Assembly: GCA_964538855.1 (NCBI GenBank)
Contig: CAZIEY010000002.1
Span: 153,007 to 217,006, forward strand
From: an uncultured Candidatus Saccharibacteria bacterium
GTDB lineage: Bacteria; Patescibacteriota; Minisyncoccia; Phycocordibacterales; JAACPR01
DNA length: 64,000 nucleotides
Reading direction: 5' to 3'
Below the pieces are notes generated by a model. That model was not told the origin of the DNA, did not search any database, and saw only the letters and a program-made list of their open reading frames with translations. Shown here in pieces: positions 56,417-63,999 of the stretch. The position numbers were made by a program, and so were the translations under genes. Position 1 is the first letter of the stretch; every line of letters starts with the position of its first letter.

Positions 56417-57112
56417 CTATAAGTCTAAACCATATTTTTTAATCGCCTCTCGAAAACTCCTTGCCACCAAAATCAAATCGGGGTGACACTTGTTAATCAT
56501 ACGGTCACTACCACAAAAACATTTTCTCCCGTCAAATTGACCGTTCATTACGGATTCAACCAAATTCCATTGTTTACTTACTTTTAGTCGCTTAAGACAA
56601 GCAAGAACTTGTGGTTCTTTACTATCACTATTCTTGAACGATTGCAGAATGCCGACTACATCGTGGTCATACGCAAGCCAAGGCCATTTTTTGTACTCAT
56701 CAAAATAAGATTGGGCATATAAAAATGGTATCACTAAACGTTCAAAGTATTCGAGAAAACTATAGCCTCGTGTAAAAATATCATCCTCTTCAGAAGGACC
56801 CGCTAAACACGCTCGTCCATCTCCAGTGTCAAAAAAATGACGTTTCGGTATCCACTTGTTTTTATCTGTATAAACCCAGCATTTAGGCATTCTACGACTC
56901 TCACTATTTTTAGTGATTTTTATCTTGTATTCCCCACTAATAACCAGACCCTCGTAATCGATGTTTGGGTCCATGAAAGCAGTAAACATATTTGTGACTT
57001 TATCGTAGACAGAAGTAAACCGGACAGTACCTTCAATAGTGTCCTCACCCTCATTTATTTTTAAATCAGGTAAAGTTTCAGCGAGCCATTGAATTTCGAT
57101 TTTAGTTATCAT
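56417..57112 (-). CDS. Unrecognised Cys-rich protein (~230 aa) encoded immediately downstream of the candidate CD-NTase; possible novel CBASS accessory/effector
   Basis: Start at MITKIEIQ; Cys pairs RACLAG and KCFCGSDRMINKCHPD; overlaps the NTase gene stop by ~10 nt. Confidence 0.45.
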   Translation of the reverse strand: MITKIEIQWLAETLPDLKINEGEDTIEGTVRFTSVYDKVTNMFTAFMDPNIDYEGLVISGEYKIKITKNSESRRMPKCWVYTDKNKWIPKRHFFDTGDGRACLAGPSEEDDIFTRGYSFLEYFERLVIPFLYAQSYFDEYKKWPWLAYDHDVVGILQSFKNSDSKEPQVLACLKRLKVSKQWNLVESVMNGQFDGRKCFCGSDRMINKCHPDLILVARSFREAIKKYGLDL

Positions 57113-58019
57113 TATTATAAGACCATTGGCGTGGTGGTGTATATGAACCACCGATTGTATACCCGGCAGTTACCGCACTCGCACTCTTACTATTTCCTGA
57201 ATTGTTCTGTTTAATATTACTTTCAAATAGTACTTTCCAAGATTCTATCTCATTTGAATCTTGTATAGTTTTAAGAACCATTTTCGCTGCTTGAGAAATG
57301 TTTCTTTTTTCAGAATCATCAACAAGTTGAGAAACGATATTATTCGTGTTGGCAGGGTCTATAATTCGCGATGACGCAAAGTTATCACGAAAAGCTTCAA
57401 GCACCTTAATGAATCCCTTCTCGAGATCGCCCTTATTCTGATAACCCGAAAGAGTTTGCACAACAAACAATTCGAGAATAAAGGTCTTTATCTTGATGTT
57501 ATTTCGATGTGCCCAAAGTTTAATCAGACGAATAATCGACACACATCCACTATCGACAATATGATCGATATGTATTTTAAGATTGGTCTGCATTCTCTCC
57601 TTGTCTCCTTGTGCGACATGAAGAAATACATCCTTAGTGTCTGTGATAAAGCGTCCCGGTACAACATCAATATGGAAATCACCTGGTGCATCAGCACCCT
57701 TTAGATCGAGAATTCTTTCTGCCGAAGCCTTGTGCGTAAGGAGGTACTTCTTAGAAAGTCGAGTTGCTACGTCTTCACGGATTTCTTTCAATGACCGTTC
57801 GTCAGAACTTGGAAAGTAACAGACGATATCAAGATCGTATCGATCACAAATCATTGTGCCTTTCTCTCTAGATCCTGCATATTTTATAACAGGATCATCA
57901 CCGAATTCTTCACGGAGAAAAGCGGTTACTTCGTTCTTATGGGACTGCAAAGCTTCCTCCTGTTTTTCAGACAGATCTTGTGAAGCGAGCAGGTTTTCTA
58001 GGTATTTGCTTGGTGTCAT
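57102..58019 (-). CDS. Pol-beta-superfamily nucleotidyltransferase of SMODS/CD-NTase type (candidate cyclic-oligonucleotide synthase)
   Basis: YAGSREKGTMICDRYDLDIVCYF = G-S-x11-DhDh; third acidic residue in HIDVVPG; 305 aa; translationally coupled to HNH-fusion gene. Confidence 0.55.
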   Translation of the reverse strand: MTPSKYLENLLASQDLSEKQEEALQSHKNEVTAFLREEFGDDPVIKYAGSREKGTMICDRYDLDIVCYFPSSDERSLKEIREDVATRLSKKYLLTHKASAERILDLKGADAPGDFHIDVVPGRFITDTKDVFLHVAQGDKERMQTNLKIHIDHIVDSGCVSIIRLIKLWAHRNNIKIKTFILELFVVQTLSGYQNKGDLEKGFIKVLEAFRDNFASSRIIDPANTNNIVSQLVDDSEKRNISQAAKMVLKTIQDSNEIESWKVLFESNIKQNNSGNSKSASAVTAGYTIGGSYTPPRQWSYNNDN

Positions 58020-58023
58020 AAAT

Positions 58024-59199
58024 TTAATTAATAGTTAATGCTAACTCGTACCCTTCTCTGATTCGATCGTATACATGCAACTGCGGACTAACATCTTTTA
58101 GTAGTTCTCGTCCGCAAACTATCGCAACTGGGGCAGGTATTGCAGCGAAAAGATGAAGTTCACTCTTTGTTCCATGCTCCACTTCGATTGAACGCAAGAT
58201 ACTTTGGTACTTTCTTTGGAATGTATGAAGACTCTCTCTTGCTGTTATGAGCGACCGATTCGGATCTTTGCCTAATGGCGTAATTTCGTAGATAGTAAAC
58301 TCATCGTTTATATGTTCAGGTAGTTGATCCAAGACAATCTTGCTACTCAACGAGAGAAGTAAGGCGATCTTTTTCTGATTACTACCTTTCTGAATGCATT
58401 GCGATTCGAACTGTACAGATTCTTCTTTGCGCCATCGCCATCCCGCAGGATTATCTCTGTGATGTTGGTAAAAATCTGCAGCAATCTTATCCCCCAACGC
58501 ATTACCTAGATGAATGAGTATGGGTATCCTTGCAAGTGAAAATACTGATATGTGTCCAATATGTCCACTTTCTATCGCAGGAACTACCTGACGATTCACA
58601 ATTTCGTTCACTTTAGCTATAGCCATCTTCCAAAAATCAGTGTTTACTTCTTGCGGTAGAGACTGAAGATCTATCTCAATTGCCCGCTCGTCCCCCAAGT
58701 AGCGAGGATATCTACCAGTATCAAGCACTGCGGTTCGTATCTCTTCGTTTGAGATTGAAACACTATCCCCTCGAATATTACCCATGATCCGAAGCACTAC
58801 CGTCTCATGCTCAACACCAAGACTTGTAAGGTACTTAATACGAGCTTCGTGCTCGTTCTTGTATCTCATTAGAAGCTCTTTTGGATATTCATCAACTTTA
58901 TCAATCACAGCATGACATTTTGTGCAAAGAAGCATAAGGTTTGAAGCTTTATTTCGTTCTGTGATCGGGAGAGGATCGTCGCCTCGTGGACCTCCTTTTG
59001 ATCGAGCGACTATGTGTGCGATATTCGAGAGTTTTACCTCTTGAGTCGTAAGAGCATCTTCCAATAAATAGGTATTACACCCATGGAATTCACACCTACC
59101 TCCTGCATGCGTCCACAACTCAAATACAACAGGATCAGTACCACTGATACTCGGTGCTTTAGATAAATTTCGACTTTTCTTTGCACGCTTTCTGGACAT
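58024..59199 (-). CDS. HNH endonuclease fused to ~250-aa C-terminal domain (Cap5-like HNH-SAVED effector, putative)
   Basis: CEFHGC...AHIVARSKGGPRGDDP...NLMLLCTKCH = HNH bba-Me motif; size (391 aa) and domain order match Cap5; SAVED assignment is inference. Confidence 0.5.
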   Translation of the reverse strand: MSRKRAKKSRNLSKAPSISGTDPVVFELWTHAGGRCEFHGCNTYLLEDALTTQEVKLSNIAHIVARSKGGPRGDDPLPITERNKASNLMLLCTKCHAVIDKVDEYPKELLMRYKNEHEARIKYLTSLGVEHETVVLRIMGNIRGDSVSISNEEIRTAVLDTGRYPRYLGDERAIEIDLQSLPQEVNTDFWKMAIAKVNEIVNRQVVPAIESGHIGHISVFSLARIPILIHLGNALGDKIAADFYQHHRDNPAGWRWRKEESVQFESQCIQKGSNQKKIALLLSLSSKIVLDQLPEHINDEFTIYEITPLGKDPNRSLITARESLHTFQRKYQSILRSIEVEHGTKSELHLFAAIPAPVAIVCGRELLKDVSPQLHVYDRIREGYELALTIN

Positions 59200-60655: not shown

Positions 60656-61939
60656 ATGAAAAAACTAGTTTGGAGCACAGTTCAAAAGAAAGTAGATGAC
60701 CTTATTCCCCAAAAGATAAACCCTCGTATTATCAATGACAAACAAATGTCAGATCTTAAGAGAAGTTTACAAAAGTATAACTTGGTGGAAATACCTGCAG
60801 TTGATCTCAACGGAAAAATTCTTGCGGGACACCAGCGCATCAAAGCACTGAAGATATTAGGTCGTGGTGATGAATTAATAGATGTAAGGGTCCCCAACCG
60901 CAAACTTACTGAAAAAGAATCGAATGAATACCTGATAGCATCCAACAAACTCGGCGGTGACTGGGATTTTGAAGCACTCAAATCTTTCGATCTTGATGCG
61001 CTTGAATTTGCAGGATTTGATGAGGTTGAAATCGGCAAATTCATGGATGATGACAAGGAAGTGATAGAAGAAGATTTTGATGTAGAAAAAGAATTGAAGA
61101 AGATAAAGAAACCAATAACAAAGCTTGGTGATATTATCACGCTTGGGAAACATCGAATCTTGTGCGGAGATTCTACACGCAAAGAAAATCTTACAAAACT
61201 ATTCGGGAAAGAAAAAGCATCAATGATATATTCAGATCCAGTGTATAACATAGATATCAATTACGACGGAGGTATTAGTGGCAACAAAGACTACGGCGGA
61301 AATGTAAACGACACAAGAACTTTTGATGAATACAAAAAATTCTTGAAAGATAGTATGGAAGCAGGACTTGCGGTATCCAATAAAGATATTCACACCTTCT
61401 ATTGGTGTGATCAAGTATATATAGGCGTGGTGCAGGATCTATATAGATCCCTCGGTATTGTAAACAAGCGGGTATGCTTATGGATAAAGAACAACCAAAA
61501 TCCAGTCCCTAGTGTTGCATTCAACAAAGTTTACGAACCCTCAGTATATGGTGTCCGAGGAAAACCGTATCTAGCAAATATCAACAATCTTAATGAAGTG
61601 CTCAATAAGGAATTAAGTACTGGTAACAACTTGTTTGATGAGATTAATGATATCTGGATGACGAAAAGACTATCAGCACAGGATTACACGCATGCAACTT
61701 CAAAACCCTACCAACTACACGAGAAAGCAATAAAACGCTGCACTAAACCAAACGACCTCATCCTCGATAGTTTTCTCGGATCGGGCAGTACTCTCATTGC
61801 AGCCGAAACTCTAGGTCGAAGAGTATATGGGTGTGAATTAGAACCTCAATTCTGCGATCTCATTATACGAAGATATGAAAAGCTAACTGGTAAAAAAGCC
61901 GCAATCAAACACCATGAAGAAAAACAAAGTTCAGAATAA
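60656..61939 (+). CDS. ParB-like nuclease domain fused to beta-class N6A/N4C DNA methyltransferase
   Basis: N-terminal ParB/Srx fold with AGHQRIKAL; motif IV SDPVYN (DPPY-type) precedes motif I DSFLGSGST; typical phage/plasmid orphan MTase layout. Confidence 0.75.
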   Translation: MKKLVWSTVQKKVDDLIPQKINPRIINDKQMSDLKRSLQKYNLVEIPAVDLNGKILAGHQRIKALKILGRGDELIDVRVPNRKLTEKESNEYLIASNKLGGDWDFEALKSFDLDALEFAGFDEVEIGKFMDDDKEVIEEDFDVEKELKKIKKPITKLGDIITLGKHRILCGDSTRKENLTKLFGKEKASMIYSDPVYNIDINYDGGISGNKDYGGNVNDTRTFDEYKKFLKDSMEAGLAVSNKDIHTFYWCDQVYIGVVQDLYRSLGIVNKRVCLWIKNNQNPVPSVAFNKVYEPSVYGVRGKPYLANINNLNEVLNKELSTGNNLFDEINDIWMTKRLSAQDYTHATSKPYQLHEKAIKRCTKPNDLILDSFLGSGSTLIAAETLGRRVYGCELEPQFCDLIIRRYEKLTGKKAAIKHHEEKQSSE

Positions 61940-62345
61940 ATTCCTTGATGAATTGGAAAAAACACCGATTATCCAGTATGCATGTGAAAAATGCGGAATA
62001 TCAAGAAATACATACTACCGATGGATTAAAGAAGATAGTTTTTTCAGGTTACAAGTAGACGACCGCATAAGTCTTGGTGTTGATAGAATAAATGATTTCG
62101 CCGAAAATAATATCCTTTCTGGTATTAAACGAGGTGATTTCAGATCAACTATATATTGGCTTAGTCATAGGAATAGAAACTATGTAAAGCCATTGAAAGT
62201 TATTATGCACCCAGACGACTCGGATACCCAGAGAATTCGATTGGAATTTGCAAAACGGAGAGCAAAAGAAATGCAGGAGCGGTGGTTTAGACATAAACCA
62301 AATCAAGAGATCAGTGATCCAAATCACCCACTTGACCCCAAATGA
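61914..62345 (+). CDS. HTH protein, phage terminase-small-subunit-like (putative)
   Basis: ACEKCGISRNTYYRWIKED helix-turn-helix; overlaps MTase gene end. Confidence 0.3.
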   Translation: MKKNKVQNKFLDELEKTPIIQYACEKCGISRNTYYRWIKEDSFFRLQVDDRISLGVDRINDFAENNILSGIKRGDFRSTIYWLSHRNRNYVKPLKVIMHPDDSDTQRIRLEFAKRRAKEMQERWFRHKPNQEISDPNHPLDPK

Positions 62346-62381: not shown

Positions 62382-62546
62382 TTAGTCTTTTGCGACTGCC
62401 CATACAAGTGCCACGATCCATCCAATGACCGTCCAACCAGCTGTGATATTTAACACTAGTATTGCTTCTGAATTCTTCTTGTGACGAGAATAACCAATAA
62501 TTGACGGCAACATGTACCCAATCAGCATCCCGAAAAATAATTCCAT
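62382..62546 (-). CDS. Superinfection-immunity-like mini membrane protein (54 aa)
   Basis: MELFFGMLIGYMLPSIIGYSRHKKNSEAILVLNITAGWTVIGWIVALVWAVAKD; LN..AGWT.IGW..ALVWA pattern of prophage Imm/superinfection-immunity family. Confidence 0.4.
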   Translation of the reverse strand: MELFFGMLIGYMLPSIIGYSRHKKNSEAILVLNITAGWTVIGWIVALVWAVAKD

Positions 62547-62650: not shown

Positions 62651-63220
62651 TTACCTTTGTTCAACAGTACCGTCTGTATAAACCAGAGTCTCGACTTCCC
62701 ATTCGTAATTCATCTTTGCTAAATCAATATTTCTGAGTTCTATATCACTGTCGATAAATTGATTGTATTCAAGATATACTGAATACAACTTAACTTCTGA
62801 AATTTTTAATCCATCATCATAAGAAATACCAATTGACTTGATATGATCACCGAATAAATCTTGGATACGAATAGTTCCCTTAACCCCGTCCAATTCCTTA
62901 CCAGAATTATTAGTAAGTTCAAGCGACATACTAATTGAATCTTGATAGTCTCCGTCCGTAAAACCTTTTTTTAAAATCTTAAGATCTACTTTTTTTGATA
63001 AGTCAGTAGTATTACTTACCTCAGGTGCACTCCGTTCTTCTGAATTATTAGTTTGCACATCAGACTGCGTATTAATCACATCGGAAAACGTATCTCGAAT
63101 GGCTTTCTGCAATTGATATGTTTTATATTCCATACCCGCCCAAAACACCAACGCCAATAGTATACACACCGGAATAATCCACTCACGTTTACTTTGTAAA
63201 AATATTTTTAATTTTTCCAT
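62651..63220 (-). CDS. Hypothetical membrane-anchored protein (189 aa)
   Basis: N-terminal TM; preceded by attenuator-like leader. Confidence 0.45.
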   Translation of the reverse strand: MEKLKIFLQSKREWIIPVCILLALVFWAGMEYKTYQLQKAIRDTFSDVINTQSDVQTNNSEERSAPEVSNTTDLSKKVDLKILKKGFTDGDYQDSISMSLELTNNSGKELDGVKGTIRIQDLFGDHIKSIGISYDDGLKISEVKLYSVYLEYNQFIDSDIELRNIDLAKMNYEWEVETLVYTDGTVEQR

Positions 63221-63225
63221 GAAAT

Positions 63226-63364
63226 GTTCGTCGCGATTTATTTTATAAATTCCTAAAGATGAGACACAAAAATCCCATCACTAGGAAGACCCGAAGGTCT
63301 CTACACCAGTTTCCCGATGTAACGCGACGAACGCCCTAATGATGGGGTTTTTAAGTTCGTCGCG
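63226..63364 (-). promoter_or_regulatory. Attenuator/riboswitch-like leader with mutually exclusive helices: X1/X2 (cgcgacgaac, two copies) vs Y (gttcgtcgcg), and a 17-bp terminator helix enclosing a UUCG-capped hairpin
   Basis: Plus-strand: gttcgtcgcg 63226-35 and 63355-64; inverse cgcgacgaac 63323-32; terminator arms 63268-85 / 63334-52 with T-runs both sides; gaccUUCGggtc inner hairpin (minus-strand sense). Confidence 0.4.
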
Positions 63365-63553
63365 ATTTTGACCATATCCTTTGAAATTTCAAAGGGGTTA
63401 GGTCCAATTAATATGTAATTGTCAGGATTAAATGATACAACAAAAGCATCGTTTAATCCAGTTTAGATTATATCGCTGAACACTCTCTTTGCTAAGACTT
63501 GGTGACGACCACACTACGCTTTTCCGTGTTTGCATAGATATATTAAAAAATGT

Positions 63554-63582
63554 ATAGCCCCTGAAGTTCATCCAGGGGCTAT
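63554..63582 (-). terminator. Terminator atagcccctg-N9-caggggctat overlapping stop of histidine-phosphatase gene
   Basis: Perfect 10-bp stem, T-run on minus strand. Confidence 0.5.
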
Positions 63583-63999
63583 GAGGGATTGATCACTGAC
63601 GTCTTCCTTACCCACTCAAATGCAGGAGTCAGGAAAAACATTTCTTCAAGATGAAACCCTCCGCTTTCACCCTGAAGATAACGAACTATTTGGCAATTTC
63701 TAATATAATTATCTCCACCGATAAAATCTATGTAATTGCTCGGTGGAGTTTTATGGTGTATCACTCTAACGGCTTGTATAGGTCCGCCGTGCGTAACAAC
63801 CAAAATCTTCTTACCTGCATAAACCCTGTGGGCGTTACGCAGAAATAAATTCATTCTCTCCCTAACAGATTGCATAGACTCGCCATTCAACGGCTTCCAA
63901 TCAATACCGTCTTCGCTCTTAGCGATGCCCGCATCTTCAAATGCTCTTTCCCTTTCTGGATATGGAAGTAGCTCATAACCACCCCAATCCCGTTCACGT
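63579..63999 (-). CDS. Histidine phosphatase (phosphoglycerate-mutase-like) family protein, N-terminus beyond window
   Basis: LVVTHGGPIQAV (HGG) C-terminal motif; reading frame stays open upstream to the window edge (...REAFEDAGIAKSEDGIDWKPLNGES...). Confidence 0.6.
   Translation of the reverse strand, partial: RERDWGGYELLPYPERERAFEDAGIAKSEDGIDWKPLNGESMQSVRERMNLFLRNAHRVYAGKKILVVTHGGPIQAVRVIHHKTPPSNYIDFIGGDNYIRNCQIVRYLQGESGGFHLEEMFFLTPAFEWVRKTSVINPS

Follow-up and report, generated by a model that had tools for sequence, protein, structure and literature searches.

What kind of RNA stands in front of a membrane-protein gene of an uncultured Candidatus Saccharibacteria bacterium, and does it govern that gene? 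We examined this question in a window of 64,000 nt (GenBank assembly GCA_964538855.1, contig CAZIEY010000002.1, positions 153,007 to 217,006 of the forward strand), the whole stretch of DNA analysed, whose internal numbering is used throughout. In front of a minus-strand open reading frame (ORF) for a protein of 189 amino acids (aa), a sequence-only reading had noticed a segment, Y, able to pair with either an upstream copy (X1) or a downstream copy (X2) of its complement, and had interpreted the arrangement as an attenuator or riboswitch. The Rfam scan that it proposed as a check identified the element as LOOT (RF03000). We describe below a 3' extension of LOOT and copies of its segments next to the start codon, and weigh a reading in which the RNA would act as a switchable leader of the genes behind it.

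A full-length LOOT RNA with an additional long-range helix

The LOOT model aligned to 63404-63286 of the minus strand over model positions 1-121 of 121, scoring 77.7 bits against a gathering threshold of 46.4 (E = 8e-15), and LOOT was the single Rfam family at gathering threshold in the whole window. Judged by the family's own threshold, this is a full-length LOOT RNA. The motif originates in a survey of 224 motifs (Weinberg et al. 2017) and has been described as having ~43 base pairs, six helices and unusual cross-covariation (PMC7657543); two more covarying pairs came with Rfam 15 (PMC11701678). No functional study of LOOT was found in the literature searched, which did not include the supplement of the 2017 survey, where the original description sits.

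In the model alignment and in 102 homologues we found the CCUAA...AUGG letters of P1/P2, an A-rich linker, a long P3 and a GAAA-capped P4, and the P1/P2 letters and the GAAA of P4 are upper-case in the Rfam consensus. The tetraloop hairpin P5 is present as AGACC-UUCG-GGUCU; its loop differs from the consensus GNAA, and other copies carry GNRA or UUCG. Whereas the Rfam model ends at P5, the window continues with a tail that pairs with the P3 loop, a U-run, a near-copy of that loop (L3') and X2. The pairing of X1 with Y is the long P3 stem in this alignment. Of the attenuator or riboswitch interpretation, the anatomy held up and is under selection, but X1:Y proved to be P3 of a known RNA family rather than an ad hoc antiterminator. 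The 5' domain of LOOT (63404-63370) lies outside the stretch that had been singled out from the sequence.

To collect relatives, we scanned a collection of species-representative genomes with a tightened pattern of the letters that the LOOT model conserves, which gave at least 120 loci; all cross-locus counts below are among the matches listed, with denominators that differ by test. The pattern fixed CCTAA, ATGG, AAAA, GT and GAAA, so the invariance of those letters in the set is by construction, and it left P3, the tail, L3' and X2 free. P3 had at least seven consecutive pairs in 111 of 122 pattern matches, mostly 10-11, and 19 of 19 sampled loci exceeded Rfam's own LOOT threshold (55.9-98.5 bits). 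About 73 of ~112 loci among the matches listed belong to named lineages of the candidate phyla radiation (CPR; Patescibacteria), including Parcubacteria/Paceibacterota, Saccharibacteria, Microgenomates, Gracilibacteria, Doudna-, Taylor- and Magasanikbacteria and others, and one is a viral contig; the remainder mostly lack a lineage label or take theirs from a single co-assembly project. In IMG/VR, two scans by pattern returned 41 and 19 chance matches and one true LOOT (L042). For pair counts, 102 distinct LOOT copies were aligned with plain MAFFT (alignment A1), which is structure-blind and was fitted to no structure.

Within the window, the 10-mer CGCGACGAAC occurs on the minus strand at 63364-63355 (X1) and 63235-63226 (X2), and its reverse complement GTTCGTCGCG at 63332-63323 (Y). 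These three are the sole exact matches of the 10-mer in 64 kb on both strands, with ~0.1 expected by arithmetic, and they bear out the two perfect 10-bp pairings, X1:Y and Y:X2, claimed from the sequence. The direct repeats X1 and X2 lie 128 nt from each other, and the repeat is really 14 nt long (AAATCGCGACGAAC, 63368-63355 and 63239-63226). A longer helix joins 63351-63335 (AAAACCCCAUCAUUAGG, in the P3 loop and called L3 here) with 63285-63269 (CCUAGUGAUGGGAUUUU, the tail). It had been described as a 17-bp terminator helix; it does span 17 positions and run into UUUUU (63272-63268), but contains only 15 Watson-Crick pairs, along with one G-U pair and one C-A mismatch. As had been read directly in the sequence, it encloses Y and the AGACC-UUCG-GGUCU hairpin (63301-63286), and also the GAAA-capped hairpin. 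The 161-nt stretch folded at -57.1 kcal/mol (z = -5.26), and 0 of 200 shuffles were equally stable. The three pairings are not chance, because all three recur with different sequences in homologous loci: X1:Y, the loop-tail helix with its U-run and the start-codon copy X2 all covary in independent LOOT loci, which was the second check proposed.

L3 was complementary to the tail after P5 in nearly every copy, with a U-run after the tail in 106 of 111 loci, and the L3:tail duplex averaged -22.3 kcal/mol, compared with -11.3 when L3 was shuffled. In A1 this helix was 86.4% paired and 16 of its 17 pairs changed on both sides; one example pair was CG in 56 copies, UA in 40, UG in 6 and unpaired in 0. 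P1 and P2 were 89.7% and 91.7% paired, with double changes, and P4 was 90.9% paired, with all eight pairs changing on both sides. Pairing of the whole LOOT structure reached 82.1%, against 62.1% in shuffles and 36-50% with the partners slid, and all of its helices are supported by covariation. Because many of the pairs are G-U (columns 85-174 are UG in 75 of 102 copies, columns 82-177 in 50), the signal is that of a strand-specific RNA and not of DNA symmetry. This record of substitutions indicates that the leader anatomy is under selection.

The inner extension of P3, ~8 bp in the LOOT consensus, is reduced here to 3 bp with non-canonical marks, and across the 102 copies it was weakly paired (58.3% versus 52.9% shuffled). 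Pairing of its bases with the 3' tail takes its place; given the pairing values, we rejected this hairpin as an antiterminator. The linkers are short, with a median of 7 nt from X1 to the L3:tail helix and 2 nt from that helix to Y. Since these lengths fit H-type geometry, P3 and L3:tail may form together as an H-type pseudoknot with coaxial stacking; the nested energy model treats the two as mutually exclusive.

A plain intergenic intrinsic terminator, that is, a compact GC-rich hairpin with a loop of 3-8 nt following an upstream stop, does not describe the element. Nor is LOOT the terminator of the upstream His_Phos (histidine-phosphatase) gene, truncated at the end of the window, because that gene has its own, a compact 12-bp terminator with a U-run at 63554-63582 (minus strand). 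The LOOT helix lies ~300 nt beyond it, behind promoter-like sites. On the plus strand, a scan called a terminator-like hairpin at 63333-63348, GCCCTAATGATGGGGT, followed by a T-run; this hairpin is complementary to L3 with its A-run and is probably a by-product of the LOOT sequence. No tRNA or tmRNA-like (transfer-messenger RNA) element was found at the locus, and a mir-2788 match at 63326-63408 (plus strand) was dismissed as chance (17.3 bits against a gathering threshold of 62, E = 0.94).

We take the P1/P2 internal loop to resemble the 11-nt GAAA-tetraloop receptor, the classic form of which is 5'-CCUAAG...UAUGG-3'. LOOT has CCUAAC...UAUGG together with the GAAA loop of P4 (forced by the search pattern, and upper-case in Rfam), but position 6/7 is A/C or C/U where the classic motif has G-U. 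The likeness hints that the LOOT loop is a receptor variant; the strength and selectivity of the tetraloop-receptor contact have been described (PMC2275092). At columns 8 and 38 of A1 (window positions 63397 and 63376), the sixth base of CCUAAN covaries with the base before AUGG, as A-C or C-U, and the A/C combination is possibly a protonated wobble. A leader peptide starting at the AUG of the receptor motif was rejected, as it would have 24 codons in the window and only 8 in L083 and L085 (by eye).

Copies of LOOT segments at the downstream start codon

Beyond the U-run, the window carries L3' and then X2, which ends 5 nt before the ATG at 63220 and not 4 nt as first read. L3' pairs back with the tail and leaves the U-run in a hairpin loop (-16.8 kcal/mol in the window). 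Across loci, the first ~20 nt after the U-run paired with the tail at a mean of -11.6 kcal/mol, compared with -9.2 in a cross-locus control that set Y or the tail of one locus against the downstream regions of other loci and that is inflated here by related loci. A tail:L3' duplex of -12 kcal/mol or lower was found in 49% of loci versus 19% of controls. Y had a partner at -12 kcal/mol or lower within 200 nt downstream in 27 of 95 loci and within the upstream 200 nt in 0 of 95; against the downstream regions of other loci, 2.8% reached -12 (Fisher p = 8e-14). Counting L108 and L156, which the thresholds missed, ~28 of 95 loci carry X2, and 92% of X2-bearing loci have tail:L3' at -10 or lower. 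The start-hiding alternative pairing is thus present in the window and in ~30% of loci, and was not seen in the others.

X2 comprises 15 distinct sequence types, each matching its own X1. Its distance from the U-run is 19-46 nt, and nearly all copies sit 0-7 nt before an ATG. Where the two copies diverge, X2 can still pair with Y: in L064 an A-to-G change leaves a G-U pair, and in L154 U-G becomes C-G, an improvement. After the U-run, L3' comes first and X2 second, which reverses the upstream arrangement of X1 then L3 and nests with Y...tail; this permuted order argues for selection on RNA pairing rather than duplication. Among the matches listed, the closest relatives (L087, L152, L157, L101, L147 and L170) share homology from the promoter through X2 that ends at the ATG, and their ORFs differ. 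X2 as a target-site duplication or a remnant LOOT was rejected, since P1/P2 lies outside the repeats, the copies are permuted and none of the 19 loci scanned with Rfam contains a second LOOT.

Both tandem promoter-like sites upstream of LOOT (Table 1) are kept in close relatives, where the proximal one is arranged as TGGAyT-17-TATyAT, and the predicted start from the proximal site lies ~20 nt before P1. In 60 of 94 loci the best -10 hexamer falls in a cluster 35-21 nt ahead of P1 (binomial p = 3e-30). Between the LOOT 3' end and the ATG, no clustered promoter signal was found: 26 of 67 loci had no candidate, and in the others candidates were lower-scoring and scattered in position. An internal promoter over the U-run (TTGnnn, 16-18 nt, TATTAG-like) was dismissed as a general account on these grounds and because the last T is absent from its hexamers.

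In 96 of 103 loci, an ORF of at least 40 aa on the same strand begins no more than 150 nt past the U-run, at a median gap of 43.5 nt; the ATG follows the U-run by less than 30 nt in 27 of 96, and in L042, L063, L068 and L097 it lies 3-13 nt after the U-run start. In L042 the long helix itself would cover the start region, because GGGGAG in the tail precedes the AUG by 6 nt. Since the promoter signal sits before P1 and none was found between LOOT and the ATG, the downstream genes most likely depend on transcripts passing through LOOT. The locus therefore has the layout of a riboswitch or attenuator, a structured domain with a promoter signal directly upstream of a same-strand ORF.

Cargo genes and genomic setting

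Homologues of the 189-aa protein lie behind LOOT in L101 and L087. The protein had no match in Pfam, PHROGs or PADLOC, an exact sequence look-up was empty, and distant blastn of the region against phage records gave no match. A gene for a superinfection immunity protein follows 104 nt downstream of the 189-aa ORF and, from its strand and position, is probably part of the same LOOT-led transcription unit. Across loci, an N-terminal hydrophobic segment (first 70 residues) was found in 68% of downstream ORFs, compared with 22% of 732 control ORFs from the same loci (p = 1e-18). Their Pfam content is diverse, including trypsin-like and subtilisin proteases, DUF805, tRNA_anti-like OB folds, peptidoglycan-binding and SH3 domains; other downstream types are Ltp lipoprotein, DUF4352, a secreted nuclease, pilin and DndB, among others.

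Table 1 Features of the LOOT locus and its surroundings in the 64,000-nt window
Feature	Position	Strand	Basis
Distal promoter-like site: TTAGCA, 17-nt spacer, TATAAT	63467-63495	-	Consensus scan, 10/12 matches
Proximal promoter-like site: -35 TGGATT (63460-63455), 17-nt spacer, -10 TATCAT (63437-63432)	63432-63460	-	Consensus scan, relatives
LOOT core (P1, P2, P3, P4, P5)	63286-63404	-	Rfam RF03000
P1/P2 domain; internal loop CCUAAC (63402-63397) / UAUGG (63376-63372)	63370-63404	-	Rfam alignment, pair counts
X1, P3 5' strand	63355-63364	-	Rfam alignment, exact repeat
L3, P3 loop and 5' strand of the long-range helix	63335-63351	-	Duplex energy, covariation
Y, P3 3' strand, complementary to X1 and X2	63323-63332	-	Exact match
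P4 hairpin, GAAA tetraloop 63313-63310	63302-63321	-	Pair counts, Rfam consensus
P5 hairpin, UUCG loop 63295-63292	63286-63301	-	Rfam alignment
3' tail (3' strand of the long-range helix) into U-run 63272-63268; terminator-like end, beyond the Rfam model	63268-63285	-	U-run census, covariation
L3', near-copy of L3	63249-63265	-	Duplex with tail
X2 and A-rich flank, 14-nt repeat of 63368-63355, ending 5 nt before the ATG	63226-63239	-	Y duplex
189-aa ORF, N-terminal membrane segment, presumed regulated gene	62651-63220	-	ORF call
54-aa superinfection immunity protein gene	62382-62546	-	PF14373, E = 8.8e-19
ParB_N and N6/N4 DNA methylase fusion (427 aa) overlapping a 143-aa helix-turn-helix ORF	60656-62345	+	
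Type II CBASS (cyclic-oligonucleotide-based antiphage signalling system) operon: E2-like 56417-57151, CD-NTase cyclase 57102-58019, SAVED-HNH (Cap5-type) effector 58024-59199	56417-59199	-	

Upstream neighbours of LOOT across loci include six N6/N4 DNA methylases (three with a ParB N-terminal domain), reverse transcriptases, HamA, PemK and IrrE-like proteins. In the related loci L101 (5364-6347) and L114 (2436-3419), LOOT is preceded on its own strand by a 328-aa reverse transcriptase (RVT_1) that ends 81 nt before it. A large serine recombinase adjoins LOOT in 10 of 85 loci, mostly divergently (among them L066, L085, L107, L118, L137, L140, L170, L092 and L125), with tRNA genes beyond the recombinase in some, for example at 979-1227 of L066; LOOT may mark one end of an integrative element. 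In L156, a syntenic block holds the same set of CBASS genes, ParB-methylase and LOOT. The helix-turn-helix ORF of the window had weak matches to terminase small subunits in PHROGs, and no large terminase follows it there. The pair of ParB-methylase and helix-turn-helix genes recurs within 8 kb of LOOT in ~19 other loci, convergent or divergent, which suggests a phage satellite or degraded prophage; L042 encodes a large terminase. Because these neighbours are typical of mobile elements and defence islands, gene content places LOOT on mobile, phage-like or defence islands, where it fronts cargo genes.

Competing folds and alternative explanations

Three folds of the 205-nt leader are nearly equal in energy. 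The minimum, at -68.6 kcal/mol, is the nested fold that combines Y:X2 with tail:L3'; keeping P3 together with tail:L3', which leaves X2 largely free, gave -66.0 kcal/mol, and L3:tail without P3 gave -64.5 kcal/mol. For an RNA that stops at the U-run, the best nested fold is L3:tail, at -56.2 kcal/mol. We regard it as an evenly balanced proposition that LOOT is the promoter-proximal leader of a small cargo operon, made up of the genes for the 189-aa membrane protein and the superinfection immunity protein, and that in this leader a terminator-forming fold competes with a start-masking one. Transcription would start ~20 nt upstream of P1, and LOOT would fold first, forming P1/P2, P3 (X1:Y), P4 and P5, after which L3 would pair with the tail. 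This helix and the U-run would then halt most polymerases and release a LOOT RNA of ~155 nt, termination being expected because the helix runs directly into the U-run. In read-through RNA, Y...tail would be captured by L3' and X2, and the resulting nested fold would bury the region before the ATG and leave the gene untranslated; a LOOT fold that retained Y would leave the start region free. The balance would be set by whatever stabilises or destabilises the LOOT fold, be it a ligand, a protein or folding kinetics.

Such a leader would share several traits with riboswitch platforms, namely a structured 5' domain, a helix that uses part of that domain and is followed by a U-run, an alternative pairing over the translation start and near-isoenergetic folds. 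It differs from them in having no known ligand and an incoherent regulon, though one enriched for membrane and secreted proteins; in a terminator stem that closes a ~50-nt loop with two hairpins and may coexist with P3 as a pseudoknot; and in the placing of the sequestering strand within the conserved domain, ~90 nt away from its target. We advance more tentatively, and with less than even confidence, the broader claim that LOOT is not a free-standing small RNA (sRNA) but a widespread cis switch of CPR mobile elements, a pseudoknotted leader with tertiary structure that would gate membrane or secreted cargo genes in response to a signal. Its 3' half would swap between its own 5' half, ending transcription, and the downstream decoys, masking the start.

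Several observations weigh against a switchable leader. The native fold says stop for transcription and go for translation, and because it points in opposite ways a kinetic or ligand component must be assumed. The terminator-like helix closes a ~50-nt loop containing two hairpins and was not called by a simple terminator scan. By Pfam, no common pathway unites the downstream genes, an unusual situation for a ligand-sensing riboswitch. X2 is missing from ~70% of LOOT loci, and in loci without it whose ATG lies at least 30 nt after the U-run, complementarity of the start region to the own LOOT was not above that to foreign LOOTs (-12.0 versus -11.0 kcal/mol). Finally, Rfam types LOOT as 'Gene; sRNA'.

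This last assignment, the absence of X2 from 70% of loci and the heterogeneous downstream genes would all fit a stand-alone structured RNA, for example a protein-binding one, that is unrelated to the next gene. The long helix and U-run would then be its terminator, and L3' and X2 would silence stray read-through or be by-products. The compact architecture, the tetraloop-receptor-like motif and the probable pseudoknot also suit such an RNA, and in compact CPR genomes a nearby same-strand gene is expected anyway. We nevertheless consider this explanation unlikely: across 15 sequence types X2 changes together with X1/Y and keeps its place at the start codon, N-terminal hydrophobic segments are enriched threefold downstream, and in several loci the ATG lies 3-13 nt past the U-run start with no intervening promoter signal, so that expression would have to pass through LOOT.

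LOOT might instead be released by termination as a small antisense RNA whose Y and tail pair in trans with X2 and L3' of read-through or separately started transcripts. A precedent is C4 of the immI region of phages P1 and P7, an RNA from the front of a phage operon that is processed from a larger transcript and whose loops occlude a complementary ribosome-binding site downstream (PMC5320573). By analogy, LOOT lies at the front of a mobile-element unit and has segments complementary to a start-codon site further down. C4, as reportedly described by Citron and Schuster in 1990, has upstream copies (a1, b1) of its target sites (a2, b2), a parallel to X1/L3 and X2/L3'. The promoter signal of LOOT's own, its terminator-like end, the target-like copies at the start codon and a mobile or phage-like context with a superinfection immunity gene downstream would all suit this role. 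However, C4 acts through exposed loops and is excised by RNase P, whereas Y and the tail are strands buried in LOOT's own helices of 10 bp and 12-17 bp, and LOOT's 3' end has the look of a terminator product. Exchange of partners within one read-through RNA would be kinetically far easier, the 64 kb hold no further exact copy of the 10-mer, and a scan of 62900-63700 against all Rfam families at E <= 10 gave only LOOT and a chance microRNA match, with no similarity to C4. We consider action in trans unlikely as well.

In hok/sok-type type I systems, long-range pairing within the mRNA hides the start region of a membrane-protein gene, and successive folds form during and after transcription. The LOOT leader may, by analogy, hide a membrane-protein start by long-range pairing, but LOOT is a conserved, tertiary-structured leader and the proteins behind it are mostly >100 aa and of many families. 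A type I toxin-antitoxin system proper, with a toxin under ~60 aa and an antisense RNA, was rejected, given an ORF of 189 aa here and a median of 171.5 aa across loci; Rfam scans of the locus and the window found no antisense RNA element for such a system.

A DNA-level role for the repeats, for example as recombinase or attachment sites or as a target-site duplication, is very improbable despite the 128-nt spacing of the direct repeats X1 and X2, the serine recombinase next to LOOT in 10 of 85 loci and the tRNA genes nearby in some, because the many G-U pairs would be C-A mismatches on the other strand, compensatory changes keep pairing rather than sequence, the repeats do not bound the conserved unit (P1/P2 lies outside), the downstream copies are permuted and the presence of X2 does not follow that of the recombinase.

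LOOT has been an orphan since 2017, a structure with strong covariation for which function, host and regulatory context were not found in the literature searched. Nor does that literature appear to describe the 3' extension of LOOT, the copy at the start codon, the association of LOOT with membrane-protein cargo or its setting on CPR mobile elements. The comparison supplies a host group (CPR/Patescibacteria and one viral contig), an island setting beside serine recombinases and ParB-methylase/terminase-small-subunit-like genes, a corrected architecture and a testable link to the adjacent gene. CPR bacteria are mostly uncultured and poorly understood, and to our knowledge almost no RNA regulation is known in their lineage; the predictions made here can be tested in vitro, and culture of the host is unnecessary. 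If the cis-switch reading is true, LOOT would represent an orphan riboswitch-like class or a self-antisense timer. It would be among the first regulatory RNA switches described for CPR bacteria and would show how their mobile elements hold membrane-protein cargo genes silent or inducible.

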